A stretch of DNA of 64,000 nt. Origin: a virus. Positions 25,281 through 56,684 of this stretch are shown in pieces. Made by a program: the position numbers and the translations under genes. Below the pieces are notes generated by a model that saw nothing but the letters and a program-made list of their open reading frames with translations, did not search any database and had not been told where the DNA came from. The number at the start of each line of letters is the position of its first letter. Positions within the stretch are counted from its first letter, which is position 1. Where the stretch lies: positions 32,001-96,000 of the IMG/VR virus record IMGVR_UViG_3300009157_000001. One strand, written 5' to 3'.

Positions 25281-26366
25281 TTAGTATTCAACATAAGTGA
25301 TTTTTGATTCATCAAAGTCCTCTAAGGCACTTGCCACCCACCGGGTGTCAACTGTGTCCCTATAACAGAGGATATGAACTGTTGCTGTATCTTTTGGGTT
25401 CAGAGAAAGCATTCTACCTATCCTCTGAGCAGTTTTGGTATTATTCCCATAAGAATGAAGAAGAATCCCTTCCTTTAATTCAGGGATTGTAATGCCCTCA
25501 TTCAACTGTAATACACAGGAAAGTCTGATTATTTCCCCACTCTTAAATTTCTGAAGGTTCTCCTCAGAAGTAGGATTCTTACTATGATAACTATAAGGAC
25601 ATAACCGGTCTGCTTGTTCCTGGGTATTAGCAAAGAGTATGCATTTATTCTCAGACTTAAAAAATATCTCTTTTGCAATTACCTCCTTACTAGGAAATCC
25701 CATAAGAGCTTTCATTCTCATAATAGACATAATCTGTTGTTCCTTGGCAGTAGAGGCATTGTCCAGTCTACCACTCCAATACTCATAAGATTTTAACTCT
25801 GAGGTATACCAGGATTTCCCCCGGACTTCTACTTTGAGTGTATTATCTGTAGCTAATGAAAGGTTGTGTATAATGATCCTGTAATCATTTAGGATCTTAT
25901 CTGCTACTGCTTCTTTGACTATGTATTTATAGACAATAGGACAGTACATATCTACCATCTTTCCTTTCTCCGATACAGGAACCCTTGGAGGAGTACCAGT
26001 CAATCCTACAATCTTCCCCTTAAAGTTAGACAACCACTCATCATGATTATACAATAAATTATGACACTCATCCAGATAAACTATATCATAATCCAAAGTC
26101 TGTTTGGTCAAGGAAAGATATGTGGTAAATGTGATATGATCCAATAAATGAACCAGATCAAACTTCTCAGCATCATCTTTCCAGCTCTGGAATATAGACA
26201 ACTTCGGGGCAACTACCAGAACCCTTAAAGTATCTGAGTAGTGGTTGTCCATATGTCTGAGCCCTACAAGAGTTTTACCAACCCGCATTGACACAGCTAT
26301 AGTGCCTCTCTCAACTTTAGACATTGCTTCTAATGCCTCATCTTGCACTATGTTTCTTGTTTTCAT
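25281..26366 (-). CDS. SF2 (DEAH-type) helicase
   Basis: RVGKT, LDECH, GLTGTP, QRIGR. Confidence 0.9.
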   Translation of the reverse strand: MKTRNIVQDEALEAMSKVERGTIAVSMRVGKTLVGLRHMDNHYSDTLRVLVVAPKLSIFQSWKDDAEKFDLVHLLDHITFTTYLSLTKQTLDYDIVYLDECHNLLYNHDEWLSNFKGKIVGLTGTPPRVPVSEKGKMVDMYCPIVYKYIVKEAVADKILNDYRIIIHNLSLATDNTLKVEVRGKSWYTSELKSYEYWSGRLDNASTAKEQQIMSIMRMKALMGFPSKEVIAKEIFFKSENKCILFANTQEQADRLCPYSYHSKNPTSEENLQKFKSGEIIRLSCVLQLNEGITIPELKEGILLHSYGNNTKTAQRIGRMLSLNPKDTATVHILCYRDTVDTRWVASALEDFDESKITYVEY

Positions 26367-26808
26367 AAGTTACCTTAATTATATACCTTTTCCTAAAAGG
26401 ATAGTTCCATCCTCGAGCTCTTTTAATACTAGTTGCAGAACATCTCAAGTATCTAGCAGCCATCTCCATACTAGGAAAATACATCTGATTCATACTTTCC
26501 TTATCAAAACAACTTACCAAATATCCATCAGTCTTGACTGGCTTTACATAAACTTTACAAGGACAACCTAATTTATAGATAAGGTGGTTATTGAATTTTG
26601 GTTGCTTTCTTCTACCTTTTCCAAGAATGATTTGGGAAATCATAGATTGAATACTTTTTCTAGGAAGATTATACATCCCAAGTAAATATCTAGAAGCATC
26701 ATTCTGAGATTCAGCCTTATACACCTCCTTACACTGAAGAGTATAGACAGTAACTGGAATTTTCTTGTCATCATGAGAAGGATATTTAAGAGTACCTTCT
26801 GCTTTCAT
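26338..26808 (-). CDS. NUMOD1-like HTH DNA-binding protein (possible homing-endonuclease remnant)
   Basis: Two repeats, ESQNDASRYL and FPSMEMAARYL; no nuclease motif seen. Confidence 0.55.
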   Translation of the reverse strand: MKAEGTLKYPSHDDKKIPVTVYTLQCKEVYKAESQNDASRYLLGMYNLPRKSIQSMISQIILGKGRRKQPKFNNHLIYKLGCPCKVYVKPVKTDGYLVSCFDKESMNQMYFPSMEMAARYLRCSATSIKRARGWNYPFRKRYIIKVTYENKKHSAR

Positions 26809-26934
26809 CCTGAATCTGATTCTTATCTTTTTTCATAGTACTTTGTATTAAGGTCCTTTCCAGTTTCCTTACTAAGGTCCTTCTCTGTTCAGTCATTTTC
26901 TGGCAAGAGCCAAAGCTTTATACTTATTTGTAGA

Positions 26935-27010
26935 CAAAGTAGTAGCTACCTGGATGGTTAGAATTGTCATGATTGTAATTCACATCATTCAGTACCTAGC
27001 TAGAGGTAGT
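26935..27010 (-). repeat. DGR template repeat TR-B
   Basis: Non-coding and AAT-rich; differs from VR-C only at adenines and from VR-B almost only at adenines. Confidence 0.95.
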
Positions 27011-27018
27011 ATAAAAGC

Positions 27019-27525
27019 TTAATCTAAGTAATCTATCCATACATCCATAAAAGTAGAAACAGCAAATTTACACTTTTCTTCAGTCTCAAAGTAGCAGCCA
27101 CCCGGACGGTTAGAAACGGCACGAGTGAAGGAAATCCCAACATTCAGCACCCAGCCAGAGGTAGTCTTCTTAAACCAAGGATAATACTTCTTCTGATCAC
27201 CATTATTGAAGTCAGCAATCCACTCACCATTTAGAATAGTGGATATATTGTTAATTCTATGTAATGCAAACTGTCTCTTTCTCTGATCCTCAGGTAAAAA
27301 AGAGAAGTGTTCTAAAGTAAGTTCTTCAAATCCACCTTCTTCACAAATATCCTGGTAGTCTTTTATCCTACTAACAAGATCAATCTTGCTCAGAAGAGAC
27401 TTTGCAGATCTCTTATTAAGACAATGACTAGTCCCACGAAGAATAGTAGCAGCAAGATACATAGACTGCGGATCTTTACTTGTAACCATTTCTTTTAAAG
27501 AATTATAGTTCTGATTTGTCTTCAT
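27019..27525 (-). CDS. DGR target protein B (YPWF family)
   Basis: LNGEWIADF...KKYYPWF followed by VR-B. Confidence 0.9.
   Translation of the reverse strand: MKTNQNYNSLKEMVTSKDPQSMYLAATILRGTSHCLNKRSAKSLLSKIDLVSRIKDYQDICEEGGFEELTLEHFSFLPEDQRKRQFALHRINNISTILNGEWIADFNNGDQKKYYPWFKKTTSGWVLNVGISFTRAVSNRPGGCYFETEEKCKFAVSTFMDVWIDYLD
27087..27165 (-). repeat. DGR variable repeat VR-B
   Basis: About 15 substitutions at TR-B adenines, plus one T>G and one extra codon. Confidence 0.9.
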
Positions 27526-28476
27526 ACTGAATACTTTTTTCTTAGATTCTTACTATCACAATACTTAAGCCATCCATTGTAGGAATTAAGAGATGCTCTG
27601 TTCTTTCTGTACTTTACCATCTTTATAAACCTCTTCTTTATTCCTTTTCTGAGAAGAATATGTGTATGATAAAACTTGTACCCCACAAAATCTATTCCTC
27701 TGGAACTAACCGGGAATACCTGATGATTGAAATTAACCAGAAGTTTTAGATTATTCCATAAATACTGCTTAATTTTTACCAAAAGATCATGTAACTCCTT
27801 CTTGTTTGATCCCAGGATAACTATATCATCACAATACCTAAAATAGTATTTTACCCCCCCCTGAACTACTCTTAATCCAATGGTCAAAGTAAGTAAGATA
27901 GAAATTGGCCAAGTATTGTGAAAGATAATTTCCGATTGGTATACCCGGAGCACTGTTAATTATCTCATCTAGAAGTAATAAGAGCCTGGGATCTTTGAAC
28001 TTTTTCCTAAGAAGAACTTTCAGAATATCATGATCTATAGAAGGATAGAACTTCTTTATATCAAGTTTTAGACAGTAAGTTGTTCCCTGGACATCCAAAA
28101 GAGATTTTCTTAAAGTTCTCCAAACCCCATGTATACCCCTACCTTCTATACAACTGTAGGTATCTGCTGTAAAAATGGACAGGAATATAGGCTTTAGAAT
28201 ATTCATTATTCCATGATGAACTATCCGATCAGGATAATAAGGAAGTCTATAAATCTCTCTTTTCTTAGGCTCGGAAATTGTATAAACCGTATAAAGAGAG
28301 GTCTTGTACTCTCTCTTATTCAGAACATGATAAAGATTTATGATATTGTCTTCCTTATTCTTGTCATGGAGAATCACTCCATACTGTCTGGACTTTCCCA
28401 GTCTAGCTTTGGAATCTGCTAACTTGAGATTAGCTATAGTACATATTTTTGAGTAAAGATTTCCAACTCTTTTCAT
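27522..28476 (-). CDS. DGR reverse transcriptase, split by a frameshift at a G8 run (27854-27861)
   Basis: ORF 27838-28476 has DRIVHH, KLDIKKFYPSIDH and GIPIGNYLSQ; ORF 27522-27953 has YFRYCDD and GIDFVGY; removing one G joins them into a protein of about 317 aa. Confidence 0.93.
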
Positions 28477-28581
28477 AGATTCACTTCACTTAAGATCTTC
28501 TTCCCAAAGATTTTGGTACCAAAGCTCTTGTTACTAATGTTTGTCTTTTACCTAGAGGTAAGATCATACTACACATAAAGA

Positions 28582-28650
28582 AGTGGAGACTGAAGCTCAT
28601 GTTAGCATTATCATCATTCCAATTAGTATAAGAATTCACTCGCTAACTAG
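28582..28650 (-). repeat. DGR template repeat TR-A
   Basis: 69 nt; 16 of 17 differences from VR-A are at TR adenines. Confidence 0.95.
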
Positions 28651-28670
28651 CTGAGAATTAATAATATGAC

Positions 28671-29201
28671 CTACTCAGGAAGCCACTCTATATATTGTGG
28701 AAGGAAGATGTTTCCTCCAAATAGAGCAAGCTCCTCAGATTTATAGTGAAGACCGAAGCCCACGTCAGCACTACCATCAGCCCAACCAGCACAAGAACTC
28801 ACCCGCCAACCAGAAGAGGTTTTCTCAAACCAGGGAAAGTACTTCTTCTGATTTTTGTCCAGGAAATTTGGTATCCATCCTTCATTAAGGGCTAGAATCC
28901 CATACTGAAGTTTGGCCTGTCCATTTTGTGATATCTGATACTTGTTCTTGGGGTTTAAAAAAGGCAAGATATCTGACTCTATAACCCCGGTCTCATCATA
29001 AGCATCGGATATTGATTTGATCCTTTCCATAATAGGAATCTTACCAAGAAGACTCCTTGCCATTCTCTCTTCTATATGAAGAGAATTACCTCTCAAAAAA
29101 CAAGCAGCTAAGTATCTTGACTGAACATCTTTAGACTCAATCAGTTCCTTTATTCCCTGAATTGTTTTTATTTCTGTGGTTTTCTTCATCTCGGTAAACA
29201 T
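28671..29201 (-). CDS. DGR target protein A (YPWF family)
   Basis: ALNEGWIPNF...KKYFPWF followed by VR-A. Confidence 0.9.
   Translation of the reverse strand: MFTEMKKTTEIKTIQGIKELIESKDVQSRYLAACFLRGNSLHIEERMARSLLGKIPIMERIKSISDAYDETGVIESDILPFLNPKNKYQISQNGQAKLQYGILALNEGWIPNFLDKNQKKYFPWFEKTSSGWRVSSCAGWADGSADVGFGLHYKSEELALFGGNIFLPQYIEWLPE
28745..28813 (-). repeat. DGR variable repeat VR-A
   Basis: Colinear with TR-A; encodes GWRVSSCAGWADGSADVGFGLH. Confidence 0.92.
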
Positions 29202-29692
29202 ATATCATGTAAATAGATCATTCCTGTTGCAAAACCGATTGATTCCTCCGGAAAAAATACTTGGGTAAGCCTCTCCATATTATGATACACATGGTACAGA
29301 TCGTCTCTTCTACAAAGAGCTGTATGTCTTGTTCTTACTTTCTTACTTGTTATTTTCTTTGCTTTTTCAATACTTAGTACTAAATTCTTATATAATGCAT
29401 AAAGATCAAATTCTGCTACTGAGGGAATAAACTCACAGTATAAAACTTGCTTATACATTAATCCTTTACTTACAATAGACTTGTGTTTTGCTGTACTATT
29501 AGAATATCCCTGACTTGTAAAAAGATAGAGTATAGACCCATCTTGTTTAAGTACTCTCTTTGCTATAGGGAAATGATATCCATAAGAATAAATTGCATTT
29601 TTCTCAAAAAACATACTTCTACTATAAGTTTCTCCTTGAATATCTCCTGCTACAAAACCTTCTACAAGTTCTTCCTGACTTCTATACTTCAT
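29186..29692 (-). CDS. Conserved phage hypothetical protein
   Basis: IYSYGYHFPIA...YSNSTAKH motif. Confidence 0.65.
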   Translation of the reverse strand: MKYRSQEELVEGFVAGDIQGETYSRSMFFEKNAIYSYGYHFPIAKRVLKQDGSILYLFTSQGYSNSTAKHKSIVSKGLMYKQVLYCEFIPSVAEFDLYALYKNLVLSIEKAKKITSKKVRTRHTALCRRDDLYHVYHNMERLTQVFFPEESIGFATGMIYLHDICLPR

Positions 29693-30102
29693 GCAAGTCT
29701 GGATTCTGAAAATCCCAGGGCTTTTGCCATTGAGGGCATCGTCTCAATCATATGATGACAGTTAGCACAGGAAGATAACCAGGTAGACACATCAAGATAG
29801 TACTTCCCCCTACCTTTTTTATGATGGACCTGACTAGCTCTTGTCTGACACTTAGAAAGTCTTGCTTGACAGAAAGGATTCTTTTCCAAGAACTCTTTCC
29901 TGAGTTTTGAGTATTCTTTGTCTTGAACCTTCCTCTTAGAAGATCGAGGGGAGATGGGTTTCTGTTTCCTTGTTGGTTTAAACTTGGACTGACTAGTGTT
30001 GGCAACTCCAGCACAGTATCTACAGAACCCCTTCCCCTCAATTCTTTTCCAAATTGGTCTTTTCCTTTTACAATTACTACAGATCTTTTTTTTCTGTATC
30101 AT
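29689..30102 (-). CDS. HNH endonuclease-like protein
   Basis: CQARL..C...HHKKGR...CANCH. Confidence 0.75.
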   Translation of the reverse strand: MIQKKKICSNCKRKRPIWKRIEGKGFCRYCAGVANTSQSKFKPTRKQKPISPRSSKRKVQDKEYSKLRKEFLEKNPFCQARLSKCQTRASQVHHKKGRGKYYLDVSTWLSSCANCHHMIETMPSMAKALGFSESRLA

Positions 30103-40073: not shown

Positions 40074-41668
40074 ATAGCCAGGATTTTTAGTAGTTCCTTG
40101 ATCCTGCTTTCCCAGGTATGTTTACTATGTACCAGATTACACCCGGTTATGGCTATGTCCTTCCTGAGCTTATCCTGGCCCAGATAGTAGTCTATCTTCT
40201 CACAGAGCTCATCTGTATCCACCCAGGTGTCCAACTCCCATCCTGGTCTGAAATCCTTCTCTAGGCCTGGATAATAGTGGCTCAGACAGAATGCTCCGGA
40301 TCCCATAATTCTAAAGATTCTATCAGAAGAATACCTCTCATAGTTAAAGTGGGAGAAGTTAATAGCAATTTTACATCCTCTATAACAGTCTGCTTCTCCC
40401 TGAATATCATTCATCAGGTTACCTGCTGCAAGAGATGACCAATTACCTCCATATACCCCGAATTTCTCACCATATTTAGTGGCCAGGAGCTTAACCATCT
40501 CAGTTCTAGCTACTGATAGAGGAAACTGAGTATTATAGTTATTACCCAGAAATACTATCTCAGGCCAGGTCTTTTTAGGTTCACCTGCTATAAAGATCTC
40601 ATTATCAAATCCTATTTGTAAATACTGAGATTTTACTCCTAGTCTTTTTATCCTTTCTACATCAGTCTCATTAGAAAAACAAGTAAGATCTACATGTTTA
40701 CCAAGTTCTGCATACCACTTTTGCTGCGGGAACCTGACATCTCCGGACCAGTTAACAAACTGAGTATTAGGACACAAAGATCTCATTGTAATGATAGTCC
40801 CGGGATCCACAATATTAGCAGTCTGAACATGCATAAAGACAAGATTGTACTGATCTGCTTGTTGTGAAGCAATCATCAGTTTTCTTAGTTCAGGAACCTT
40901 TCCCTGATAATCTGTCCATTTAATAAATTTATACTTAGTTGCTATCTTAGCAAATACTTTCTCCAAAGGAGCCTGATCAAATCCTACATGTAGTATCTTC
41001 ATAGATTTCTTTGTTACTGAGCTAGTTACAGTCTGAGTAGTGTTTAGAGAACTTAAGGTACAGGGTTCTACAAAATGATAAGGGCCCGGTACTGTATCTA
41101 TTCCGGATTTATAGTTTCTTACCTTGGATAGATGAAGATGATGAAATATCACATCCTTGGAAGGATTGAGTATCTGATACCCTTGTTCTTTTATTTCCTG
41201 TGCTATCCGATTATCACATCCGGGAACCCCAATACCATAGAAACCAGGTATTTCCTTAATTGGAGACCTGAATATCCACACGTCCTGAGAGTCTTTTCTT
41301 ACATAATGCTTACTTGATCTACTAGACATAATATCCCACCGGGATAATGCATAGCACTGACTATCTGTTATACCCTTAATCTTTTCTATTGCACCTTCTG
41401 ATGGATATAAGTCTGTGTTAGCTATAATCACTATATCTCCATCCTTGGAGATGTGATTACCTACACTGAACATATCCCTGTACCTTATCCGGCCTTCCAT
41501 ATATTCAACCACGAGCTTCTCTGACTTAACAGGAAGCTCACAGTTAGTAAATACATGAACCAGGTCAATTTGAGGATGATTTATTACATTCTGAAGACAG
41601 GTTGTTAGTTCCTCTCTTCTTCTTTCATCCTTTTCCTCATACCATGATAATAAATAGATGACTCTCAT
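40070..41668 (-). CDS. Two-domain glycosyltransferase (GT-A-like + CgeB/GT1_2-like)
   Basis: ANTD, ALSRW, SQDVW, GCDNR; C-terminal SDRIFRIMGSG...HTWESR. Confidence 0.8.
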   Translation of the reverse strand: MRVIYLLSWYEEKDERRREELTTCLQNVINHPQIDLVHVFTNCELPVKSEKLVVEYMEGRIRYRDMFSVGNHISKDGDIVIIANTDLYPSEGAIEKIKGITDSQCYALSRWDIMSSRSSKHYVRKDSQDVWIFRSPIKEIPGFYGIGVPGCDNRIAQEIKEQGYQILNPSKDVIFHHLHLSKVRNYKSGIDTVPGPYHFVEPCTLSSLNTTQTVTSSVTKKSMKILHVGFDQAPLEKVFAKIATKYKFIKWTDYQGKVPELRKLMIASQQADQYNLVFMHVQTANIVDPGTIITMRSLCPNTQFVNWSGDVRFPQQKWYAELGKHVDLTCFSNETDVERIKRLGVKSQYLQIGFDNEIFIAGEPKKTWPEIVFLGNNYNTQFPLSVARTEMVKLLATKYGEKFGVYGGNWSSLAAGNLMNDIQGEADCYRGCKIAINFSHFNYERYSSDRIFRIMGSGAFCLSHYYPGLEKDFRPGWELDTWVDTDELCEKIDYYLGQDKLRKDIAITGCNLVHSKHTWESRIKELLKILAI

Positions 41669-41672
41669 TGTG

Positions 41673-41788
41673 CGGGGAAGATGGGAATCGAACCCACGTC
41701 CACTTCCTGGTCTAGTCTAGACTGCCAGGTTTAGCATTTGAATAGTTCCGGATATCTCCTTTATCTATTCCCTCTCTGCAACTTCCCC
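41673..41788 (-). ncRNA. tRNA-like RNA of about 116 nt with expanded D and anticodon arms
   Basis: Acceptor GGGGAAG/CTTCCCC; T arm GTGGG-TTCGATT-CCCAT; CCTGG/CCAGG arm with a 14-nt loop. Confidence 0.7.
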
Positions 41789-41789
41789 T

Positions 41790-41985
41790 TGGTGAACATG
41801 GTGGGTACTGCCCCCACTGAGTTGATGAATCCTAATACCGGACTCTTGATTGAAGAGACTTATACACCCACACCATTATGTGGAGGGTATTCCCACTCTC
41901 TCCCTTTCCCGGCAGCACTCTTAACTGCCATGGATTTATCCCTGGTTGGTCCCCAGGGCCAGACTTCTATGCCTGGACCATGTTC
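41790..41985 (-). ncRNA. tRNA-like RNA of about 196 nt ending in ACCA
   Basis: Acceptor GAACATG/CATGTTC-ACCA; T arm GTGGG-GGCAGTA-CCCAC; multi-hairpin body. Confidence 0.7.
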
Positions 41986-44034
41986 ATAAGATTGGACTAT
42001 TGATAGGCTTGCAAGCTCCAGAGCGATGATCCCTCCTCTACTATTGTCCTTGTTGATTTTTCACAACTAAGTGGGTCCTGAGACAGCTTTCCTGATATCA
42101 ATAATCCAAATTCTTCAAATAACTTTGATAATAGGGGTTTCTCCCCTTCTGTAGATATATTCCCTTTTTGGGATAGTTTTCTTCTTAGTTTTGATCCCCA
42201 GTGCTTTCCTTCTGGCATTCTCTTCATTTAAAGCCCAGACTGTTTTATCACCAATTGTGAACTCCATGAGTCCATTACTCATTCTGGTGTGTCTTTGAGC
42301 ATTATAAATCCGGGTCTTTTCCTGCTCAATCATCTGCTCCAGATCCTCATCACTCATCTTTCTCATTCTCTTCTGATTACCTCCTGCAAACATCATCATT
42401 GCTGCTGCCATCAGTCCTGCACTTGATCTCATTGGTTGTTGTGCCATGGTTTTATTGGTTTTTAGAGTTACAAATATAATAAATTTCTTAATCTCTCAAT
42501 TTGTGATGAATACACCCAAAATCCTTTGTTGTATAGACAGCATTTCCTGAATTAAAAGGTTTTTTCTGATCAGGATACTCCCCCGGTCTCAAAATACCCA
42601 CTCGGGGTCCTGTACTTACACCTGATAATTTACTACAGAATGATGCCGGGTTTGTGTAAAGAAGGACCTCCCAAAACCTACAGTTCTTACAAGCTATGAG
42701 TTTATCCATATTCAAGTTTTAAGAAGAATACTAATCTAGTAAGAGCTTGGAAGTCCTCATAGTTTGTCTCAGGCCAGAATCCTATATCAGTAGAATATCC
42801 ATATATTTTTGAGATCTTCTCTCTTATCTCAACTGTTCCCACAAATCCAAGCTTTTTAAAAATAACAAGGGAGGTACTATGATCAGTAGCAGCCATAAAA
42901 AGACCACCTTTTCCTCCTATAGAGACTTTATAGACACGACTCCCTATAGATATATTCTGATTTAGTTTAACTGGTCTATCAAAAGTCAATCTCGAGATCT
43001 TCCGGTGTTCCATGTTTTAACAGTCCTGAATAATACTGATCATAGATCCAATGAGGTACCCCGGATTCTGATACTTTTTCCAGATACTCTTCATGCTCCT
43101 GAATAAAAGGATCCTCGGATACTTTTTCTTTCTTAAGTGAATTACTCATAGTGTCCATGATTTGTATAAGTCTCAGATGATTTAGCAGGAACATCCTTTG
43201 CCCCGATCTTTTCATATAGAAGATCTATTATTTTGTATAAGGAGAAACCTCCTAAAACTAAGAGAAAGGCTCCTAAGAGATAAGTGAGAATCTTCTTCTT
43301 CATTGTACCCTCCAAACTCTTATCCAATTCTCTGATTTGGAACTTCTTATCATGAACTTCCATTTCTGTCCTTTATCTGTGTACTTTTTAAAACTCTGTA
43401 TAGCAGAATATATTGACATATGACTAAGTCTGTCATAAGGGATCTTAAAAGAATCTCCCACAACCATCTTGTCAAATGGGTATTTCCTGGATCCTTTTCT
43501 TCTGCAAATAGGTACTCCTTTTTCAATTTTGATTTTTTTCATTGTCTTTTATTTATATGTTGGTAATAGGGGATTTGGGGAGACCAGGATCATTCCTGGT
43601 CCTCCTCCCCTTGTCTGGAAACTCTGCCTAGTAAGAAAGTTATCTCAGTTCTTTCTTTCTTGTTCCCTTCTTTTCCTCCTTTTAGCCCGCCCTCCTTCTG
43701 GAGAAACATAAGGTTCTACCAGAGATTCGAGTTTCTGTATTACAAAAGGTTTTGGAGGTTCTACTGATATATTTGGTAGAAAAGACTTCATGTCCTCGGG
43801 TTTTACTAGGATCACAGAAGTTGTATCCATCCCAGCAGCTTTTAACTTGGAGAGGATGTCTGAACCATCTCCGTGGTCTATTAAAATGATCTTATTTTCC
43901 ATCTCTTCTTTTTTTATAGATTTCTACATCCTTGGGTGTTGCAGGTTTTATGTCTTCTGTACTGGCAAGATGAGATATAACTCCATATAGAGTGATTACT
44001 CCTTGCCAGACTACTATTTCTTGTTGGGAATAAC

Positions 44035-45769
44035 TCATATCCTTTTCAGTATCTGAGGTTTTATTATACTCTGAAGTGCAAATTCAAAAGTATGAGGACT
44101 TTCTCTCATATAATGTACATTGATTTTATGTTTGGTAATAAGCATGGCTCTTAGATAAGTTTGATAAGGACCGTGTGTTGTGATAAATTTCTCTCTTTTA
44201 CCCATATTCTCTTCTACCCAGAAATTTATCTTGTCTCCTTCTGCAATATCCCAACCAAACACACACCTATCCTCAATAGGATCATAGGTTTTGATCATAT
44301 CTTTTTATCATTTTGGGTTCAGTTACTTGTTTGAATCTAATTGTCTCATATGTAGTAAAAGACAATGAAGGGGAAAGATAAAGTAGTTCATTTGAAAGTT
44401 TATATACATACCCAGTTCTGGGAAATCCTATTACCATACCAGATACAGTAATTATCACCTGATCTCCTTTTTGTACATCCCATCCAAATATTGCATGGCT
44501 ATTAAGTGGTTCCTCAGTCATGTATTTTGAAATTAATTATGTTCTGAGTAACATAGATCTTGGACATGTTGGGTTTACTTCCATTAAAAGACATCACATT
44601 TATATAGAAATCTGATACCTCTGACATAAACAGACCTTGTATATGTTCTACCTCATCTATATAATCCCCGGGTGCATGTTTCCACCTCTTAGTAATATAG
44701 TCAAAGGATACCCTGGCATGCTTAAAAATATCTATTCCAAATAGAGGGAAGTCCTCTATAGGGTCTGGGAATATATAAGGATTATTCTTTAGAGTTACAT
44801 GGTTCTTATCTACTCTTTCTGTAAGATTCATAGTCTTCTTATTGATAAACAGTCTTCTATACGAATTATGTTGAGCGGATCTTTGAAATAAAAGAACTGA
44901 TCAGACCCCAGTTTTATTGACATGAAGATCCCCACAAAGGGAGGATTCTCTCCCAAAGAGTTATCTCCAGATTTAAAAACAATAACTTTTTCTCTATCCT
45001 CAATATCCACACCAAATACTGGTTTATAATCAAGACTCTCTTTTTCCATAGACCCAAGATTTACCTATATGATATACACCTATATTTCTTGACCTGTAGA
45101 CTCTTCTGTTATGTGTTCTCATATCTGTAATTACTACAGTTGTTTCAAGTCCCTTTTTATAAATATGATGAATCCTCCCTGTTACGAGACTGACACCATT
45201 TCCCACATGAACAAACTTCACAAAGTCTCCGGGTTCCGCTTCTGCTCCAAATACTGGCTTTCTTTCTAGAGGTTCAAGTACCTCTTCCATATACCCTCCT
45301 TAGTTTTGTGATCCGTGTTTTAGCAAAATGTTTCATACTAGGAAAATCATGAGGATCTATCTCTATTATACCAAACTCAACTCTCAGAAAGTTCCCTCTA
45401 TGAGAAGTTCTGCCGGCATGGCTTAGGTAGATAAACTCTATGACCTCTCCTTTTTCAAAATCCAGCTCAAATACTGGTCTGTTTTCAATAGGATCTTGGA
45501 GCTTATTCACTCTCTCTTTTTAAGTTTCTTATTCGAATCTTACTAAATTCATAGAGCCCTCCGGACAAGGCACTTCCTTCTTTTGTACTTACCAGCAAAG
45601 AGGAAGTTTTTACTTCATGTAACAATCCTACCCAAGGATCATAACGACTTCTACCAGCAAAGGTCTCACTAAATGTGATTAACTCTCCCCATTCAAGATC
45701 ACAACCAAATACATCTACTAATTCCAATGGTTCAACATCATCAAATATTCTTACTTGGTGATAATTCAT
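44035..45769 (-). repeat. Tandem array of 7 small paralogous genes (PVFG family, cluster 1)
   Basis: ORFs 44035, 44282, 44514, 44828, 45030, 45274 and 45503 share the near-N-terminal motif [DE]P[LI][ED]xxP[VI]FG. Confidence 0.85.
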
Positions 45770-46029
45770 TTTGCTGGAAAAGTAGTCACAGTAATGTTCT
45801 CAGCACAGACTTTCTGCCGGAGTCCAAGCATATTGACAAAATCCACACATCTCTCTGACTGAAAGATAATACTATCTGCAGTATACACATTCTGAGTCTG
45901 GTTATCATAAGCTTCAATCAGATAGAGTGAACTGGACTGATACCCTTTTGTATCCAGTCTTATTGATAATGCTGCTACATATACTACACAGAGTAATGTT
46001 ATGAATCCTATAATCAGTTTTCTTCTCAT

Positions 46030-46469
46030 ATCTTCTTAGTTTTAAGTTTGTTATTCAGATCTCCCCAAGCTTTTGAGGATTGTTCTCCCCACCAGTATCT
46101 TATCCATCTGTATTTGAGAGGATGAAATAAGGGAAGGAAGAACCTTAAAATTCTCAAAGTTATCATCATCTATGGTTTTTACATTGGTATGAATGAAGCT
46201 GCGTACACTACTACTAGCAGTATTAATAAGACTTTACATTCTTGTAGTCCTAGTCTCCTTTTACCAATGCTATCAAATCTACTTGTAGGCATAGTCGACG
46301 CAGTGTGTTTCAACATGCCGCCTTTGCTTCTTTCGTTGCAATTACTCTCCTTACATTACAAGCCGCCCCTTTAGAAGGCTAGAGATGATTTCATAATCCT
46401 CCAGGGCCGTCCCGCTACACACTTGAAGTTATCTTTGTGTATAGGAGGGACATTCCTTAGAGGTGTTTC
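46030..46469 (-). ncRNA. Candidate large structured ncRNA
   Basis: 440-nt gap with no minus-strand ORF in the track, several complementary segments and locally retained CpGs. Confidence 0.45.
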
Positions 46470-46913
46470 TTATTTGAGCTTTGCCAGTTTCTGGGTAAGA
46501 AGAGCCATCCGGTCATCTTTGTCCATCAATTCTGTGTACTCCTTCTTGATGGCAGTAAGCTCCTCAAGTCTTTCTTTGTTCTCAATAATGGCAATCCTGA
46601 GCTGGATATCCTGTTTGTAGTCATCCAGAGAGAATCCATTTATCTTGAACTCAGGCACTGTTGTAAGTTCAAGGATCTGCTGAGATTCATCATAAGCTTT
46701 CTTCCGGGCAAGTACTGATGAGAACATCTTTATGAGCTCCATCACATTTGTCTCAGTCTCAATACTGTTGGAAAACCCATCCAGTTTACCTGAGGTCCTG
46801 TATACCTTGTCCTGAATATGCTTAAGTGCCTCAATCTTCTGATTGACAATCTCAATTCCTGATACAACACTTGTTACAGTCTGTACTCCTGTTTCTTCTT
46901 TTTTCTCTTGCAT
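46470..46913 (-). CDS. Coiled-coil hypothetical protein
   Basis: 147 aa, helical. Confidence 0.7.
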   Translation of the reverse strand: MQEKKEETGVQTVTSVVSGIEIVNQKIEALKHIQDKVYRTSGKLDGFSNSIETETNVMELIKMFSSVLARKKAYDESQQILELTTVPEFKINGFSLDDYKQDIQLRIAIIENKERLEELTAIKKEYTELMDKDDRMALLTQKLAKLK

Positions 46914-46939
46914 GATTATTATTGGTTTTAGTTATTGAT

Positions 46940-49187
46940 TTAGAAAATTGTGTATGTTTCTAGTTTTGGTGATTCTTCAAGAAGAGGTGCCCATTTCCCA
47001 CCACTATAGATATATCCTGCACCAGCATCTATACGAAGAGGGTTCTTATCTAGAACTCGTACATCTCTAGATGTTGTAGTAATATTATGAGGACTTACAT
47101 CAAGTACCCTCCCATGTCCATTCATATAATAATGTTTGGTACCTTTTGGGTATCTTCTCTGAGCTTCTTTTATTATCTCTTCTTCAGTCATAATTAGAAT
47201 ATTTTGTATGATTCCACATCAGGGATTATCTTTGCCCATTCTCCATTATTATAGATCCTGGCATTACATCCTGTATTTATTCTAAACCAGAGTTCACTGG
47301 TATTACCTGAACCTTGGCATCTGGTACTATCTATAATCTTACCAAAATACTGCCTGGGATTAAAAGTAGAGATTACAAAAACTCCTGTATTGTATCCTCT
47401 TGCATGTGCTTCCCTTATAAGTTCTTCTTTAGTCATGATCCTAGAATATTTGATATAATTCAAGTTTTGGTAGTTGAGCAACTTCAGAAATCACCGCCCA
47501 TTGTTCTTTGTAATAAATTATCTCTGAGAAGTCATGTCCATTCTTTGTCATATCACCACTGCTTTCCTGAATAGCAGAATCAGTCAAATAAAACCTTTCT
47601 GGATCATATACTGTACATATCCTATCTCTGGCAGGACCAAGATGAACTGGGAAATATTTAGTCCCAGCAGGATATCTCCTTCGGGCTTCTTCAAGTAATT
47701 GCTTTTCATCCATGACTTAAAAGATTTTGTAAGTTTCTACTTTATCTTTATGACATACTTCAGCCCAAACCCTATTGCGATTACTATAAAGATTTGCAGT
47801 ATCAATAACCCAAACTTCACCGTCCCTATCTATATAGATCCTAGGCTCTCTCTTAGATGTGTATACTGAGGCTGATAATTTTCCACTAACCTGAACTGGT
47901 CTAAATCTGGTTCCTTCTGGAAACCTTCTTCTGGCCTCATCTAATAATTCCTGTTGGTTCATAGTCTAAAAGATTTGATAGTTTTCTAATGGGGAAGAGA
48001 TGTCTTGACTATCAGGTCTTGGTACTAACTTATTAGCTCTTATACAGAGCTCTAACCAGTACTTCTCTGAAACAGAAGCCAAGGTGATTTTTCTTTCCCC
48101 ATAGTAAGGGGTACTTTTCTCAAAACAAAAGTCCTCTCCACCTCTCATATTGCTTAGGCAGTATGAGTCTTCAAATCTGTTACGACCATCATGAGAACCA
48201 GAAAATCGAGTGATTGTATAAGTGGGATCTGTTTCATGATTTATCCTATAAAACTCTCCTTTGATACAGTCTTTTGCATTTATCATGATTAAAAGATTTT
48301 ATAGGTTTCCATATGAATTTCTTGTGTTTCCTGAACCAGGATAAAATTATCAGGGTCCCATCCCATACTGCTGCCCACTTCTTCTCTTGTTCCTAGTACA
48401 CATATCCTCACATTACCTATGTCCTCCTGATCATAAAGAACTCCATATATATTTCCCCTAAGCATACCTCTATCCGACCTATCCGGTCCTTTGTGTCTTT
48501 TTATTACATCTCCTTTTTTGAATAGTCTCATGGTTTAGAATATTTTGTAGGTTTCCAAACAATTATACTTAGATTCTAGCTCAAAGTAAGATGCTTCCCA
48601 GCTGCCATTAGCTCTTCCTGTATTTATAATAGGAATCCCTGTAAGATCTTCTACTATTACATCACTAGCTGATATTTGGTCGAATCTCACAATATAAGTA
48701 ACTCCTATAAACATTCCTTTTGAAGGATTAACATGACCCTGATGAACCCTAACAATACGATCTCCTTTCTTGAATATTGACATAGTTCTTTGTTTTTAGT
48801 AAATAAAAGATAAAGTTCCGGGAGTGGTTTAAACTCTTCAACCAGACTCACACTGGTCCCGGATCTTCTGCATAGGCATCTGTAATTTCTTTATATTGTG
48901 TACCTTTCTAATGACTCTACTGGATCAATAAATCTCCCAGCTCTTTCACATATTTCCAGTCTTTCAATTTCTCCCGGGGTAGCAAGTCTTATGGTAGTTA
49001 CCTGATTTGGAGAACTTGATCCTTTTGTAGTAAAATCAGTAAACCGACCTGAAAGAGTTATACGTAAAAAAGTATCTTTATCTGGTGGGATGAATCTACT
49101 TATATATCCTTTCTTACCATTACCAAGATCAACATAAGGTATCTGATAATACACTTTTCCTGGTATTAGCTTATTATATGGGATCAT
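46940..49187 (-). repeat. Tandem array of 8 small genes sharing a C-terminal ExYxIF tag
   Basis: C-termini LETYTIF, VESYKIF, LELYQIF, VETYKIF, LENYQIF, METYKIF, LETYKIF, LERYTI. Confidence 0.85.
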
Positions 49188-49479
49188 ATCTCATCTTGTT
49201 TTGGACAGAAACATCCTTCCTCACATCCTATCTCCCGGCATCTCCAAATACCTCCATCCTGTCTCTTTGCTACAAGAAGGATAGCTCCATGTATCTTACA
49301 AGCAGGATACTCTCCCGGGGCCAAAGGGAAGTACTGATTGAATACTTTCCCTTCAGTTACTGATCTTACCCCTATAAATCCAGGTTGGTACTTGTACCCA
49401 GGGGTTTGTTCTATATCCATAAGTACCCGAGACTTAATTGATTCTTCCATACTACCAGTTTTTTAAATAAGTAAATATA

Positions 49480-49770
49480 CTCTTCCCAAATGCAGTTGCG
49501 GATCAGAAGTAAATCTTCACCGGCAGAGGCATTTGGTAATGAACCCTTTATCCTTCTGACCAGGATTTCCGGTTAGCCCTGGACCCTTGGTACGCCCAAC
49601 AGTCTATGTTGAACCCCTTACCTAAGACAAGATGGGAAGAGCAATTTCCTTATGATAGTCTGACTTCCACAGACAGCAGGCCTTAGTATCCTGGTATCAT
49701 AAATAAGTTTTGGCAGCCAGGTCAGGACTGGTGCTTCCTGGATGACCTCTCAACAATGAGGATACTGCCA
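49480..49770 (-). ncRNA. Three consecutive stem-closed structured elements
   Basis: Closing stems TGGCAG/CTGCCA, TTATGATA/TATCATAA and CTCTTCCCA/TGGGAAGAG. Confidence 0.45.
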
Positions 49771-49777
49771 ATATTTT

Positions 49778-50203
49778 TTAACTATTAAGCCATCTTGTGT
49801 AACTGATGGATAAGAACCTCTCTGTTATTAATCTGGCAGTACTCTCCTCTTTAAAGTAGCAGCCACCCGGACGGCAAGAACCGTCACGATCGCAATACAC
49901 AGCATACAGTACCCAGCCAGAGGCAGTTTTTCTAAACCAAGGATAATACTTGGGAGTATTATCAGTAAAATCTGCCTTCCAGATCCTGTAACCATTATCC
50001 AGATAGTTGGCAGCTTTTATAATAGCTCTGATCTCCTCATCAGGTGAAGGTGAAACTTTTGGTTTCTCTTTCAGGATCTTAACTGCACTTTTATAAGAGA
50101 TGAGACTATCCATTCCTTTATCATCCTTCTCAATTATCTTTCTGAGTGCTAGAGCTTCTGCATCCAGAGCATCCATACGTTTTAGTGTTTCTTTTCTGTT
50201 CAT
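49778..50203 (-). CDS. Remote DGR target protein C (YPWF family)
   Basis: WKADF...KYYPWF followed by VR-C. Confidence 0.92.
   Translation of the reverse strand: MNRKETLKRMDALDAEALALRKIIEKDDKGMDSLISYKSAVKILKEKPKVSPSPDEEIRAIIKAANYLDNGYRIWKADFTDNTPKYYPWFRKTASGWVLYAVYCDRDGSCRPGGCYFKEESTARLITERFLSISYTRWLNS
49853..49927 (-). repeat. DGR variable repeat VR-C (template TR-B)
   Basis: 75 nt, ungapped against 26936-27010; all 17 mismatches are at TR adenines. Confidence 0.95.
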
Positions 50204-50216
50204 GTCTTATGGGTTT

Positions 50217-50789
50217 TTAAATGAGATTTAGTTTATCTATAGCACTCTTCATATCATTATCTGTGAGTCCTGTCTCACTACTGGTTTTTATAAACCAAGG
50301 AGCCTGCTCTAAGAGCATATCTGCATCATCATCCAAAATAATATAAACAAAGTCCTTTCCTAGTTTATTTGAGAACATCTTCTTGAATGATTGATCTTCT
50401 TTAAATTCCTTATAAAGATGATCTAATTCCGGATTAGCATGCCAAGGGTAGACCAAATGTCTATCTATCCAGTGTTTTATCTCAACTCCCCGGGGAATAG
50501 GTAAAGAGCTTCCTTTCTTAGTCTCTGTATACCCATGGACTGTGATTCCTATAATCTCATCCCAAAGATCCTGAGGGAAACCGTGTTTGTCAAACTGCTC
50601 TTTCATAAGAGTGGAGTCACTGCACCGCCAGGAGGATGATACCACAATCTTGGCACCGGTCTGCTGGATTATATATTTTAACCTTTCCATACACAAGACA
50701 TCAAACATATTGTAGGGAGGAATATTGACTACTCCATCTATGTCCAAGAATATGATCTTTGCAGGGAGTCCTCCGGTTATTGTTTTCAT
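50217..50789 (-). CDS. HAD-family protein (Swiss-army-knife RNA-repair HAD-like)
   Basis: IFLDIDGV, VVSSSWR, RGVEI, ILDD. Confidence 0.8.
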   Translation of the reverse strand: MKTITGGLPAKIIFLDIDGVVNIPPYNMFDVLCMERLKYIIQQTGAKIVVSSSWRCSDSTLMKEQFDKHGFPQDLWDEIIGITVHGYTETKKGSSLPIPRGVEIKHWIDRHLVYPWHANPELDHLYKEFKEDQSFKKMFSNKLGKDFVYIILDDDADMLLEQAPWFIKTSSETGLTDNDMKSAIDKLNLI

Positions 50790-51025
50790 GACCTTGGTAT
50801 TTGTAATTTAATGATTTACAGGAATTATACCTCTGGGAAAGTAATGAAGGGAAGCTTCTACTCTTTCTTCTGAGTAATCAGTACCAAACTGCCCTCCAAA
50901 ATACTCAAATGCGAGTTTTCTTCCTTCCTCATAGTCCTTACACTGAATAGAAGCAATACAGTCTTTATCAAAGGTTTTGCCATTTACAGAATGAGTATGG
51001 ATTTGTCCAAAGCTTATGTATAGTT

Positions 51026-51894
51026 TCATGGTCTGATAATTTTAAATTGGGTTATGTGTCTCTTTATGTATACAGTTATCCCTTCATCTGATGTATCCAG
51101 GCCTATATAGAAAGAAGTATTCTTGTCCAGTTGACCCGAAACAACCTGGTCATTATAACAAAACTGTACATATCTTGGAGGTTCCCAGTCTATTCCAAAT
51201 ACCGGACGATCTTCCAGGACCTCAGCATGTTTCTTTTTACCCCAGAAATCCTCATCCATAAGAACCTACCATATCAAGTCTCAGATTGCCTTGTACTATG
51301 GTTTCTTCCGGACTCTGTCCTTTAAGAGCACTGGGATATAAATACACGGATTCTACTCCAAGTAATTGGACAGAACAGTACCGGGTTCCAAACTTACAAT
51401 CTTTGTACATCTTCCCATTTGGGGCTATGTAGTACTTAGTTGGTTGGTTCATGATCTTAGTATTTTAAAGTTGGTTATATGGTCTATATCAAACACCATC
51501 AGTCTTTTTTGATCTCTAACAAAACTATGATCTGTCACAAAAATGTACAAGTACTTTTGTGTCTTGTTGAAACCATTTATCTGTCCTGAAACAAATCTCT
51601 GATCGTGATAAAGATAAGTAAAAGCAACTTTCTCAGCTATCTGAATATCAATTCCAAATACAGGATCTTTGTCCAGAGGTTCCTTTTTCATCTTCTCCAA
51701 ACTTCAAAATCAGAAACTATAGTAGCAGAACAACTTATAAGAGGACTTGCTGTATGTAGATACATATCTTTTTCATGATAATATTGAAAGGTTGCCTCAC
51801 AGTATCCATGTCCTTTGATACGAAAGTTTATGAGTTCTCCTCTTTCAGCATCTATTCCGAATATAGATCTTTCCTCTAGTGGTTCCTTCTCCAT
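51026..51894 (-). repeat. PVFG family cluster 2 (51026, 51449, 51688)
   Basis: LEDRPVFGID, PLDKDPVFGID, PLEERSIFGID. Confidence 0.8.
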
Positions 51895-52794
51895 CTTTGA
51901 GACAGCATCTTCTTAATTCGGGGCTCCAAAGAATTCCTGATTGCTTTTGCAATCAAAGTTCGGATGTCTCTATTCTGAGCCCTTGAGTAAAGTCTGTCTA
52001 CTGCATTAGCTATTTGCCGGGCAGATAAATTCTTTCTCTTGAGTATCTCTACCGGGTGGGTAATTTTGCCATAGTCTTGGTTCTTTAGTTTAAACCTCAA
52101 ATATAAAGTATCACCTGACATGTGAGCAACCATCAGATCAGGGTTCTTGGAATTCTTACTGATCTCAGGAAACTCTTCTGGTAGATCTATTATATAGGTT
52201 GAATCGGTTACCTGGTTGTAGATCTTACCATTGGAATTCCACTCTCTATGCTCATATCCTGTCAAGTAACTTAGTATAATAACAAGCATAACACATGTGG
52301 ATAAAAAGACATAAGGGATTTTCATAGTGAGTTGGTTTTTAGAGTTAGACTTACAGAAGATTCAAAGCATGTTCTATTGCAATATTGAGTATTGCATATC
52401 GGTCACCGGCTCCCAGATCATCTGCAGGCCCAGGTTTTGGTTTTCCTACTTGCCAGATGAAAGCACGATAACAAGGAGTATTTACACTAGTATTTTCTCC
52501 CCATCCATCTATTATAAGTTCAATATAGATCCCTTTGGTTTCTAACCAGTCAAGAACCTGTTGGTAAAAGGGAGCAGAAATTACAGTTCTATGTGTATCT
52601 CTTATCCAGTTTGTACTTGAATTAGTATAAGTCCTCCATTCACTATCAGTATCCTCATATTCAACACATTCCTGTTTATTATTAAGAAGATGGCCATTTA
52701 CATACTCTGCTATACAAGGTTTATCAAAACCCTTTTTCTTAACTAAAAGAGCCAGCCTGTGTGGAATAAATAAATGTTTCATGTTCTTAGTTTT

Positions 52795-53424
52795 TTAGAA
52801 TAGTAAAGGTAATAATCTGTCAATTCCTAAAGCAAATCCAATCCCTCCATCATATTGTCCTCCACCACATACTTGTTTGGAGGACCCTAGAGAATCACAG
52901 ATGATCTCAAAGCCCTTACCTTCCTTGTAATAGTCCAAGCCTCGGGTTACCTCATAGTTTATCTTGAATAGATCTAACTGGAAGCTTGTATCAAGTAGTC
53001 TCATTGCAGCTACATGTATTGCATCATACAAATCTGTAGGGTTAAGTATCTCAACTCCTAATTGTGTAAATTGTCTATATCTCCCAGCCTGGGGTTTTTC
53101 ACCTCTAAAACACTCCTGGACATAAAACAACTTCACATTCTTCTGGTCCTTAAAGTAAGTACCTGCTAATTTCTGTATTACTGCAGTATATTCAGGTGCT
53201 AGGCACAAGCCCCGGTCTCCCCGGTCTTTAAAGTTGTACATAAGGTTATTGTTCTCTTCTCCTACTTTACCAGAAAAGGTTCCTTGGTGTTGTATAATAG
53301 GAACTGAGATCTCAGTAAATCCATCTCCGATTAAGAGAGCAACCATTCTTTGGATCATCTCTCTCTTTTTATTACCTAGAAGGATCCTGGTGCCTTTGTA
53401 GCATGTCTCTTTGATTTCTTTCAT
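52795..53424 (-). CDS. Minimal histidyl-tRNA synthetase catalytic domain
   Basis: KGT, PEYT, FRGEKPQAGRYRQFTQLGVE (motif 2), RGLDYY, GGGQYD, GFALGIDRL (motif 3); stops right after motif 3. Confidence 0.88.
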   Translation of the reverse strand: MKEIKETCYKGTRILLGNKKREMIQRMVALLIGDGFTEISVPIIQHQGTFSGKVGEENNNLMYNFKDRGDRGLCLAPEYTAVIQKLAGTYFKDQKNVKLFYVQECFRGEKPQAGRYRQFTQLGVEILNPTDLYDAIHVAAMRLLDTSFQLDLFKINYEVTRGLDYYKEGKGFEIICDSLGSSKQVCGGGQYDGGIGFALGIDRLLPLLF

Positions 53425-53444
53425 ACTTAATAATTTAAGTTAAA

Positions 53445-53927
53445 AACTCTGATTAGGTTATCTACCCAGGCCAAACCTGGAAAACTCATATAAGTGTGAG
53501 TACAACTATCCATGTTACCACAGATATTTCTGTTTATCACCAATAGATTCTTTATCTCAGAGCAAGCTCTTATAATAATCTTCTGTGCTTCTGCTGCAGT
53601 AGTTTAGAATGGGAACCCGGTATCTCAACCGGTATTTATCATTCCACCACTTCTGGTTGCCTATGGTTAACCCTAAGACTTAAGGCTTTAACGGGTGTTT
53701 TAAGTCTTTTTGCATTGCTGCCCTACAGCAGAAGACACAGAAGATTTTGTACATTCCCAACAATCAAGGTTGTTTACACCCAGCTCTCCAGCTAGAGAGC
53801 ACTACTGTGCTAATAAATAGTTGAGTCTTTTAGATTGTTGGGTATCTACATAAAAAGCTGCCGGTATTCCTTCAAGCATCAGGGTTCTTTTGAAACCACT
53901 GACATCGGGCCTGATCCACTGCCGGCT
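53445..53927 (-). ncRNA. Cluster of stem-closed structured elements
   Basis: AATCTTCTGTG-CTTCTGCTG (53577) pairs with CAGCAGAAG-A-CACAGAAGATT (about 53746); CCCAACAATC pairs with GATTGTTGGG. Confidence 0.5.
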
Positions 53928-55981: not shown

Positions 55982-56684
55982 TCACTCTATCTTCTTACTA
56001 GTTCTCCTTATATATACCAGTTCTGAGTAGGTGAAGTATGCTGGATAAGCTACTGTGGTAGTATAATACTTATATATATCCACCACTATATCCTTATTAT
56101 ATAAGTGATTTACTCTTCCTTTATATAATCCGGTTATTACTTTGATCTCAACCTCTTCTCCCGGGTCTATTCCTATACCAAATACAGGTTTAGTATCTAT
56201 ATCTTCTGATTTCATGGTTATAATCTCCTGATCTTAAGTAATTCATAATTAGTAAATAACCAGGCCTCCTTTACTTCCGGTCTATCCTGTAGTTTTACAA
56301 GTAAAGATATGTCCTTACCATAACATCTATATACACTTCCCCGGACTATCTTGTCTACTGTGGTTACTTGTACCTGGGTACGAAGTTCATACTCCATCCC
56401 GAAGACCGGTCTATCCTCAATGGGATCATTACCAAATGTTGTCATGGATCTATCCGGGTTATACTCCTTATATTCTCTATATCTATTCTTCTGCTACCTC
56501 CAAGGTTAGGAGGAATATCATAGAGTATCAAATAAGACTCTCTTATATAGTATATAATACCCTGGAGTTCTTCACCATAATGTATCTGGCTATCTCTTAT
56601 CTGTATATCTACCATATCCCCTGGTCCATATCCTATACCAAAGATAGGGCCCAGGTCTATGTACTCATCTGAAAATGCATTCAT
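55982..56684 (-). repeat. PVFG family cluster 3 (55982, 56218, 56442)
   Basis: IDTKPVFGIG, PIEDRPVFGME, IDLGPIFGIG. Confidence 0.8.

Follow-up and report, generated by a model that had tools for sequence, protein, structure and literature searches.

Probable paired template modules around a single reverse transcriptase gene in an Avd-less phage diversity-generating retroelement

The diversity-generating retroelement (DGR) of Bordetella phage BPP-1 (Mtd/Avd/TR/bRT) has one template repeat (TR), needs Avd and acts on a C-type lectin target of the tail fibre, and its spacer supplies the priming adenosine. Here, we describe a phage DGR in a 64,000-nt window (bases 32001–96000 of the 126,634-bp virus record IMGVR_UViG_3300009157_000001, which has a 123-bp terminal repeat and a G+C content of 38.7%; whole-genome scans cover all 126,634 bp) that would follow the same logic of mutagenic retrohoming but has two TR-RNA modules, no Avd and targets that look non-structural and lie in the replication arm. 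Our preferred reading, which we hold with a probability of about 0.68, is that this is an Avd-less DGR of a large phage clade in which two complete template modules flank a single reverse transcriptase (RT) gene.

Several features of the locus have precedents. In the available text of Wu et al. (2018; PMC5758913), 75 of 372 DGRs lack any accessory gene, and the Avd-less elements described there as Architecture A (target-TR-RT) share with the window the GxxxSQ and YxDD motifs of the RT, a TR directly upstream of the RT gene, the absence of an accessory gene from cassette and genome, C-terminal variable repeats (VRs) and mismatches at adenines. Stenotrophomonas sp. SKA14, with two TRs and six VRs (PMC6642488), and the zeta crAss-like phages Lera and ct1yV3, with three TR–VR pairs (PMC12386605), resemble the window, as far as the accessible portions of those papers describe them, in combining several TRs with one RT and in having different TRs match different VRs. 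The initial annotation of the window, made by a model from the letters alone, had presented both the missing Avd and the two TRs as departures from canonical systems; each is already documented in other DGRs, and the lack of Avd extends across the clade (0 of 5 relatives).

The differences lie elsewhere. Compared with the Avd-less elements in the available text of Wu et al. (2018), the window has, downstream of the RT, a further TR accompanied by a spacer RNA of its own, and its targets, of ~160 aa, have no recognisable C-type lectin or immunoglobulin (Ig) domain and extend ~23 residues past the VR, modelled as two helices. Lera, in the accessible part of its description, carries Avd, tail-fibre C-type lectin targets and extra pairs with non-adenine substitutions, whereas in the window the RT lies between two modules that are both structurally complete; the accessible descriptions of SKA14, Lera and ct1yV3 make no mention of each TR having its own spacer RNA. 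Our literature search found no description of per-TR spacer RNAs or of this target family; the supplementary Table S1 of Wu et al. (2018) and the target clusters of Roux et al. (2021) may list both.

Template repeats, spacer RNAs and related loci

On the minus strand, the cassette runs target A, TR-A, a 105-nt spacer, the RT gene, target B, TR-B and a second spacer, as the initial annotation had described (table 1); a third target, C, lies apart from it. TR-A and VR-A differ at 19 of 74 nt, and 17 of these mismatches fall on the 22 adenines of the template (hypergeometric P 1.65e-10); a G>T close to the 5' edge and, 5 nt short of the 3' end, a C>T make up the remainder. TR-B has 24 adenines in 75 nt and matches two VRs. 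The alignment with VR-C contains 18 mismatches and no indel, 17 of the mismatches at adenines (P 1.9e-10) and the last at the first (edge) base, and that with VR-B, over 75 nt once a 3-nt insert is removed, contains 18 mismatches, 15 of them at adenines (P 3e-7), together with one edge base, one internal T>G and one T>C beside the indel. The adenine-specific differences that had been noted for VR-A and VR-B are real, and the VR-C mentioned alongside them exists as a TR-B match; the insertion and internal T>G of VR-B had been overlooked.

TR-A and TR-B share 50 of 68 aligned bases, too few for either to serve as template for the VR of the other. When the whole genome was scanned with the two TRs, tolerating differences at adenines, three VRs only were recovered, each TR matching its own VRs alone, which agrees with the earlier claim of distinct TRs with their own VRs. 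The window holds what defines a multi-template DGR, namely two TRs, each with its own VRs, at one RT locus, the only such locus in the genome. The exact TR-A and TR-B patterns had no match in viral contigs.

Each TR is followed by a structured RNA. For 63 distinct relatives, the 110 nt that precede the RT start were aligned, and from this alignment RNAalifold predicts a 4-bp hairpin, then an A-run, then a three-part helix; all 12 of the 12 predicted pairs show compensatory changes among these relatives. A covariance model (R1) built from the relatives' spacers alone, without the window sequence, has two strong matches in the 64-kb window, directly 3' of TR-A (51 bits, E 6.6e-10, full length) and of TR-B (47.4 bits, E 4.9e-9, model positions 1–107), with no non-canonical pair flagged in either, and its next-best match in the window has an E value of 2.5. 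Since the strong matches occur only after TR-A and TR-B, each TR has its own full copy of a conserved, RT-17-like structured spacer RNA. RT motifs of this type have been proposed to serve DGRs, according to the available part of Weinberg et al. (2017). The two spacers of the window find their best matches, below threshold, in the Rfam RNAs RT-17 and RT-18, and in the window, as in the related loci L003 and L004, a copy stands on each side of the RT.

Module B most likely originated by duplication of a target-TR-spacer unit, because an ATG still stands at the RT-start position. This ATG, at the end of spacer B (26836–26786) in the place of the model's RT start codon, opens a 16-codon open reading frame (ORF) only; a gene at 26338–26808 with a weak NUMOD1-like match begins 28 nt after it, in another frame.

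More than 568 relatives of the RT are found in IMG/VR, of which we analysed the best 80 (63–72% identity). TR/VR pairs lie near the RTs of 73 of the 80, as judged by an adenine-bias repeat finder that, in a control run on window positions 26001–30000, recovered TR-A/VR-A and TR-B/VR-B. Per locus, the finder saw one TR in 69 cases, two in 4 and none in 7; two VRs accompany 50 of the TRs, one accompanies 23 and three accompany 4. Adenines account for 1,878 of 2,015 mismatches, a share inflated by the finder itself, since it rejects pairs with more than 2 non-A mismatches per 45 nt. With the target-family profile A4, target ORFs are detected in 66 of the 80 loci (8 loci have one, 52 have two and 6 have three), mostly just upstream of the RT, and the common layout of the clade is two tandem targets, one TR ~100–190 nt before the RT, and the RT. 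R1 gives 83 matches over the same 80 loci, with two matches solely in L003, L004, L040 and L051, the very four in which the independent repeat finder saw two TRs.

L003 and L004, which hold the nearest relatives of the RT, reproduce the layout of the window (target, TR1, RT, target, TR2) with an intact RT of 319 aa, and their TR2/VR2 pair has 16 adenine mismatches and none elsewhere in its core. The window's RT 5' ORF is 72% identical to the L003 RT; both L003 targets, upstream and downstream, match target B best, and the genes flanking L003 are mostly unrelated to those of the window. L040 and L051 are arranged otherwise: a TR and spacer 2.7 kb upstream serve a 137-aa target of the small family, and the RT-adjacent TR serves a 451-aa protein that has no match to the small-family profile (L040 670–1315 and 2351–4003; L051 likewise). 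A quick tree groups the RT of the window with L003/L004 as its sisters (Shimodaira–Hasegawa-like approximate likelihood ratio test, SH-aLRT, 92) and places L040/L046/L051 elsewhere (SH-aLRT 99), a separation which suggests that the two-module design arose at least twice.

L003 and L004 come from two samples and are 99.69% identical over 7.2 kb. Their TR1 sequences are identical, and their VR1 sequences differ by a 3-nt indel and 6 substitutions, 6 of 6 opposite TR1 adenines; the DGRs of this subclade are therefore active in nature. The indel (L004 ~2870 vs L003 3726) is a 3-nt insertion relative to the TR within a VR that is changing at adenines, the same type of event as that in VR-B; such insertions suggest that, in this clade, the template slips while the cDNA is being made or integrated.

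We propose that each module consists of a TR followed by ~105 nt of conserved, structured, RT-17-like spacer RNA, that the RT would bind either TR-spacer RNA and copy the TR into cDNA with misincorporation opposite adenines, and that the cDNA would then replace the matching VR. TR-A would rewrite VR-A, and TR-B would rewrite VR-C and, probably, VR-B, with the outcome that a patch of ~20–25 residues is diversified in three paralogous proteins of ~140–170 aa. TR and RT need not be co-transcribed, according to the available text of Wu et al. (2018; PMC5758913). For this genome, the use of both RNAs by the RT, ongoing homing and the binding partners of the targets are inferred.

The template codons show two peculiarities. 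In the frame of the VR, AAT/AAC codons abound in both TRs, and each TR has a TAG (TR-A 28645–28643, TR-B 26999–26997) opposite the invariant Trp (TGG) of the SGW motif, so that copying without error would place a stop codon in the target; either A>G is the sole outcome to survive there, or transfer leaves out the 5' end of the TR. The same TAG stands opposite TGG in 3 of 114 TR/VR pairs of the relatives and is present in L003 TR1 and TR2. Among the adenine changes in VR-A, 15 of 17 are A>G, vs 46% of the mismatches in 124 TR/VR pairs of relatives; the excess could be due to chance or to selection favouring Gly, Ala or Trp codons.

A search of the whole genome with the Avd profile PF05635 found no match at E<=10, as the initial annotation, which had suggested such a hidden Markov model search, would have it; a very divergent Avd is possible, Avd being poorly conserved. 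PF05635 was likewise without a match at E<=1 in the records of the five relatives mentioned above, three of which are >=90% complete. The typical gap between the last target and the RT in the clade is ~200 nt, so there is no room for an accessory gene.

The reverse transcriptase gene and competing explanations

The RT is of the DGR type, with the motifs IGNYLSQ (GxxxSQ) and YCDD and a position next to a TR. The single ORF at 28476–27522 given by the initial annotation is in fact two ORFs, between which the frame shifts in a stretch of eight G residues (G8). The two pieces abut on profiles (positions 310/311 of phrog_1423, which they match at E 6e-73 and 3e-33, and positions 143/147 of RVT_1), and they are 72% and 69% identical to the corresponding halves of the L003 RT; no NCBIfam model reaches its cut-off on the RT. 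Taking one G from the run restores the frame, giving HWIKSSSGGVKYYFRYCDD in a continuous RT. At this point the relatives read HWIKE-xxx-(V/I)KYY, with no G run in the 30 compared, and all 31 of the relatives' RT ORFs that were parsed are intact (316–352 aa). No other G/C run of >=8 occurs in the 126,634 bp, where ~0.4 would be expected genome-wide. Owing to this frameshift, the window lacks the intact RT ORF expected of a DGR; either this copy of the genome has its element switched off, or the length of the run varies or was wrongly assembled. In the protein collection, target B, target C and the RT 5' ORF form singleton clusters on 2 contigs, and the RT 3' ORF and the 176-aa form of target A have no exact entry. 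A pattern spanning the G run had no match in metagenome contigs.

Several observations weigh against two complete and working modules. The RT gene is frameshifted, and both contigs that hold these proteins carry the truncated 212-aa ORF. VR-B contains its 3-nt insertion and an internal non-A mismatch, and VR2 and TR2 are identical in L003 and L004 while VR1 has changed, so that the RT-distal module may be less active. The RT tree is a quick one, whose grouping of the window with L003/L004 falls under the SH-aLRT mark of 95. Furthermore, both spacers score below the Rfam gathering thresholds: spacer A reaches 26.3 bits with RT-17 (RF03020; gathering score 40.4) and spacer B 28.5 bits with RT-18 (RF03021; gathering score 41.3). 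Among 8 related loci searched, 4 have spacers that reach the RT-17 score; both L003 copies and L025 matched below it, and L040 and L001 were not among the matches listed.

Of the alternatives, the one that survives best, and that we regard as possible at somewhat less than even odds, is that G8 is a miscount in assembly or sequencing, or a minority allele, and that the real RT is intact (G7) and belongs to an ordinary working DGR. Homopolymers are the commonest site of consensus indel errors, and loss of one G yields the continuous RT described above; on the other hand, this is the only G/C run of its length in the genome and it encodes an insertion absent from the 30 relatives compared.

We consider it unlikely, if not strongly so, that the whole DGR is dead, with G8 a fixed inactivating mutation and the RT a pseudogene. 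The frame is broken on both contigs on record, and intact RTs free of a G run are the rule among relatives. However, both halves of the RT are open apart from the frameshift and keep their identity to the L003 RT, the TR/VR pairs show almost no non-adenine decay, so that any inactivation would be very recent, and the data are accounted for just as well by an error or polymorphism of one base in the homopolymer.

It is doubtful, too, that module B is a relic, that is, a tandem duplicate that lost its RT, whose TR-B is no longer copied and whose VR-B/VR-C adenine pattern is a fossil. Its insertion and internal T>G in VR-B would fit such a history, as would the L003/L004 comparison, in which only VR1 changed and VR2 and TR2 stayed identical; the second and third TR–VR pairs of phage Lera, with their non-adenine substitutions, are read as formerly active in the accessible text of that study (PMC12386605). 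Yet none of the 12 modelled pairs is lost from spacer B, whose R1 score is almost that of spacer A (47.4 vs 51 bits), VR-C has no internal non-A mismatch over 75 nt, and the downstream module with its clean TR2/VR2 pair is kept in L003/L004 despite an RT only 72% identical. Since a codon indel also occurs in the demonstrably turning-over VR1 of L003/L004, the insertion in VR-B is weaker as a sign of decay.

Finally, a contingency tract (G7/G8/G9) or a recoding site, with +1 slippage of tRNA-Gly or of RNA polymerase, that switches or throttles the RT and so turns hypermutation on in part of the phage population is improbable: the only long G/C homopolymer in 126.6 kb does lie in an RT loop of variable sequence among relatives and would permit the needed +1 shift (GGG re-pairing with GGG), but the 30 relatives compared have no such tract, the 0-frame stop lies 5 codons downstream, away from the slip site, and a stimulatory signal was not seen, although no search was aimed at one.

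Returning to the two-module reading, its earlier form, one RT running two templates, gains from the separate spacer RNA of each TR and from the same layout in L003/L004; "running" presumes a working RT, and the gene is frameshifted. The initial annotation as a whole is partly upheld: the repeats, their order, VR-C and the lack of Avd stand, and the amendments are the split RT, the insertion and internal T>G in VR-B and a more likely start of target A at 29189.

Targets and genomic setting

Targets A, B and C can be aligned with one another, and in all three the motif KY(Y/F)PWFxKTxSGW immediately precedes the variable stretch. They belong to no Pfam or NCBIfam family, 132 members of the target family have no Pfam match, and the only profile that matches the targets is phrog_11581, of unknown function. 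Searched against 1.84 billion representatives, the target profile recovers 2,286 proteins at E<=1e-3 (counted as clusters at 50% identity) and 596 at E<=1e-10, mostly of 120–200 aa among the matches listed; these searches indicate that the targets form a large, unnamed phage family of ~160 aa. With target B as query, a word-based protein search returned only itself and a related-locus search returned none.

An alignment-based AlphaFold2 model of target B (predicted local distance difference test, pLDDT, 92.8; predicted template modelling score, pTM, 0.88; single-sequence pLDDT 47.4) has an N-terminal helical half, four short strands, a loop and two C-terminal helices, and VR-B maps to the last strands and the loop. 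In a Foldseek search of the PDB with the whole model, 0 of 177 listed matches had E<=0.001 and none was described as a lectin, the best being designed repeat proteins with a template modelling (TM) score of 0.29. Foldseek against BFVD gave only uncharacterised phage proteins, some of crAss-like viruses; viral hypothetical clusters of the ESM Atlas match the target, and the target profile found nothing among PDB sequences. Unannotated VR domains are expected to be new C-type lectin variants, according to the available part of Roux et al. (2021).

The cassette lies in a leftward arm with a DNA polymerase, a primase, a DnaB-like helicase and another helicase, and a tail-fibre-like gene lies at 60.4 kb on the opposite strand. 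Ten flanking proteins from L005, L012, L025 and L031 comprise a RecT-like annealing protein, 2 exonucleases, 2 DNA methyltransferases, an HNH endonuclease, a helicase and 3 of unknown function, with no structural protein among them. The cassette thus stands among replication/recombination genes in the window and in 4 of 4 relatives examined, and early-region placement is therefore a habit of the clade. The targets have no hydrophobic segment (maximum 19-residue Kyte-Doolittle mean 0.6), in keeping with the earlier description of soluble proteins in the replication arm; because of this and of their replication/recombination neighbours, a non-virion, intracellular role, as the initial annotation had inferred, is plausible. 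In temperate relatives (L005 339–2149, L012 1522–2217 and other flanks), the cassette adjoins RecT-like and exonuclease genes. It is pure speculation that a phage single-strand annealing protein could help to install the cDNA in an Avd-less system.

For target A, the start at 29189 (172 aa; entry P0002 of the protein collection) is more likely than that at 29201, given its ATGA overlap with the upstream ORF. That ORF (29186–29692; phrog_7247, unknown function, E 6.9e-19) adjoins target A, overlaps its likely start by ATGA and may be co-transcribed with the cassette. A scan for promoters and terminators gave 14 promoter-like sites vs 12.9 expected and 0 terminators, and no phage record was matched when 20 kb of the window were compared by megablast. 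On the minus strand at ~41500–56300, direct repeats of 48–50 nt (families D1 and D2) occur in many small ORFs; VFGID is present in both of the ORFs 51026–51259 and 51449–51700, and the paralogues 48289–48531 and 48535–48783 both end in ETYKIF. These small paralogous proteins look like an expanded set around target C.

Table 1. Positions of the cassette features and of the remote target in the window
Feature	Position	Strand	Basis or remark
Target A	28671..29189 (172 aa, ATG 29189); 29201 start = 176 aa	minus	ORF list; phrog_11581 E 2.3e-9; alignment with targets B and C
VR-A	28745..28818; target A residues ~129-153	minus	17/19 TR-A mismatches at template adenines
TR-A	28582..28655	minus	Template repeat, non-coding; in-frame TAG opposite invariant Trp codon
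Spacer RNA A	28474..28585; end of TR-A to RT ATG	minus	RT-17-like structured RNA; model R1 51 bits
RT 5' ORF	27838..28476 (212 aa)	minus	IGNYLSQ = GxxxSQ motif; stop 5 codons past G run
G8 homopolymer (C8 on plus strand)	27854..27861	minus	RT frameshift site
RT 3' ORF	27522..27953 (143 aa)	minus	Frame with YCDD and thumb; meaningful part begins at G run
Target B	27019..27525 (168 aa)	minus	ATGA overlap of its start with RT stop
VR-B	27089..27166; target B residues ~120-146	minus	3-nt insertion 27131-27133 vs TR-B; 15/18 mismatches at A
TR-B	26937..27011	minus	Second template repeat; candidate template of VR-B and VR-C
Spacer RNA B	26834..26938, after TR-B	minus	Second full copy of conserved spacer RNA; R1 47.4 bits
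Target C	49778..50203 (141 aa)	minus	Remote paralogue, 22.8 kb from TR-B; P0003
VR-C	49854..49928; target C residues ~93-117	minus	Cleanest TR-B match

Implications for retroelement function

What is new here is a complete, covariation-supported spacer RNA for each TR, with copies on both sides of one RT and recurrence in the clade, together with a large unnamed target scaffold in the replication region and a unique G8 tract that breaks the RT. Two complete TR-RNA modules around one RT amount to a natural test of the RNA needs of the RT, and the same design tests whether an RT acts in trans on a template unfused to its own mRNA, a question that bears on the current reprogramming of DGRs for directed evolution. 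We give small odds to a wider conjecture, in which the clade would diversify a new non-lectin scaffold (small cytoplasmic early proteins acting as adjustable binders of variable host factors, e.g. defence proteins) and not host attachment, the TR-RNA modules would have multiplied so that one RT serves several repertoires, and a G8 contingency tract would switch the mutator in this genome. The target family models confidently without a lectin or Ig match, and its neighbours are RecT, exonuclease, helicase and methylase genes, not tail genes. If it is true that the targets act intracellularly, the uses of phage DGRs would widen beyond receptor binding.

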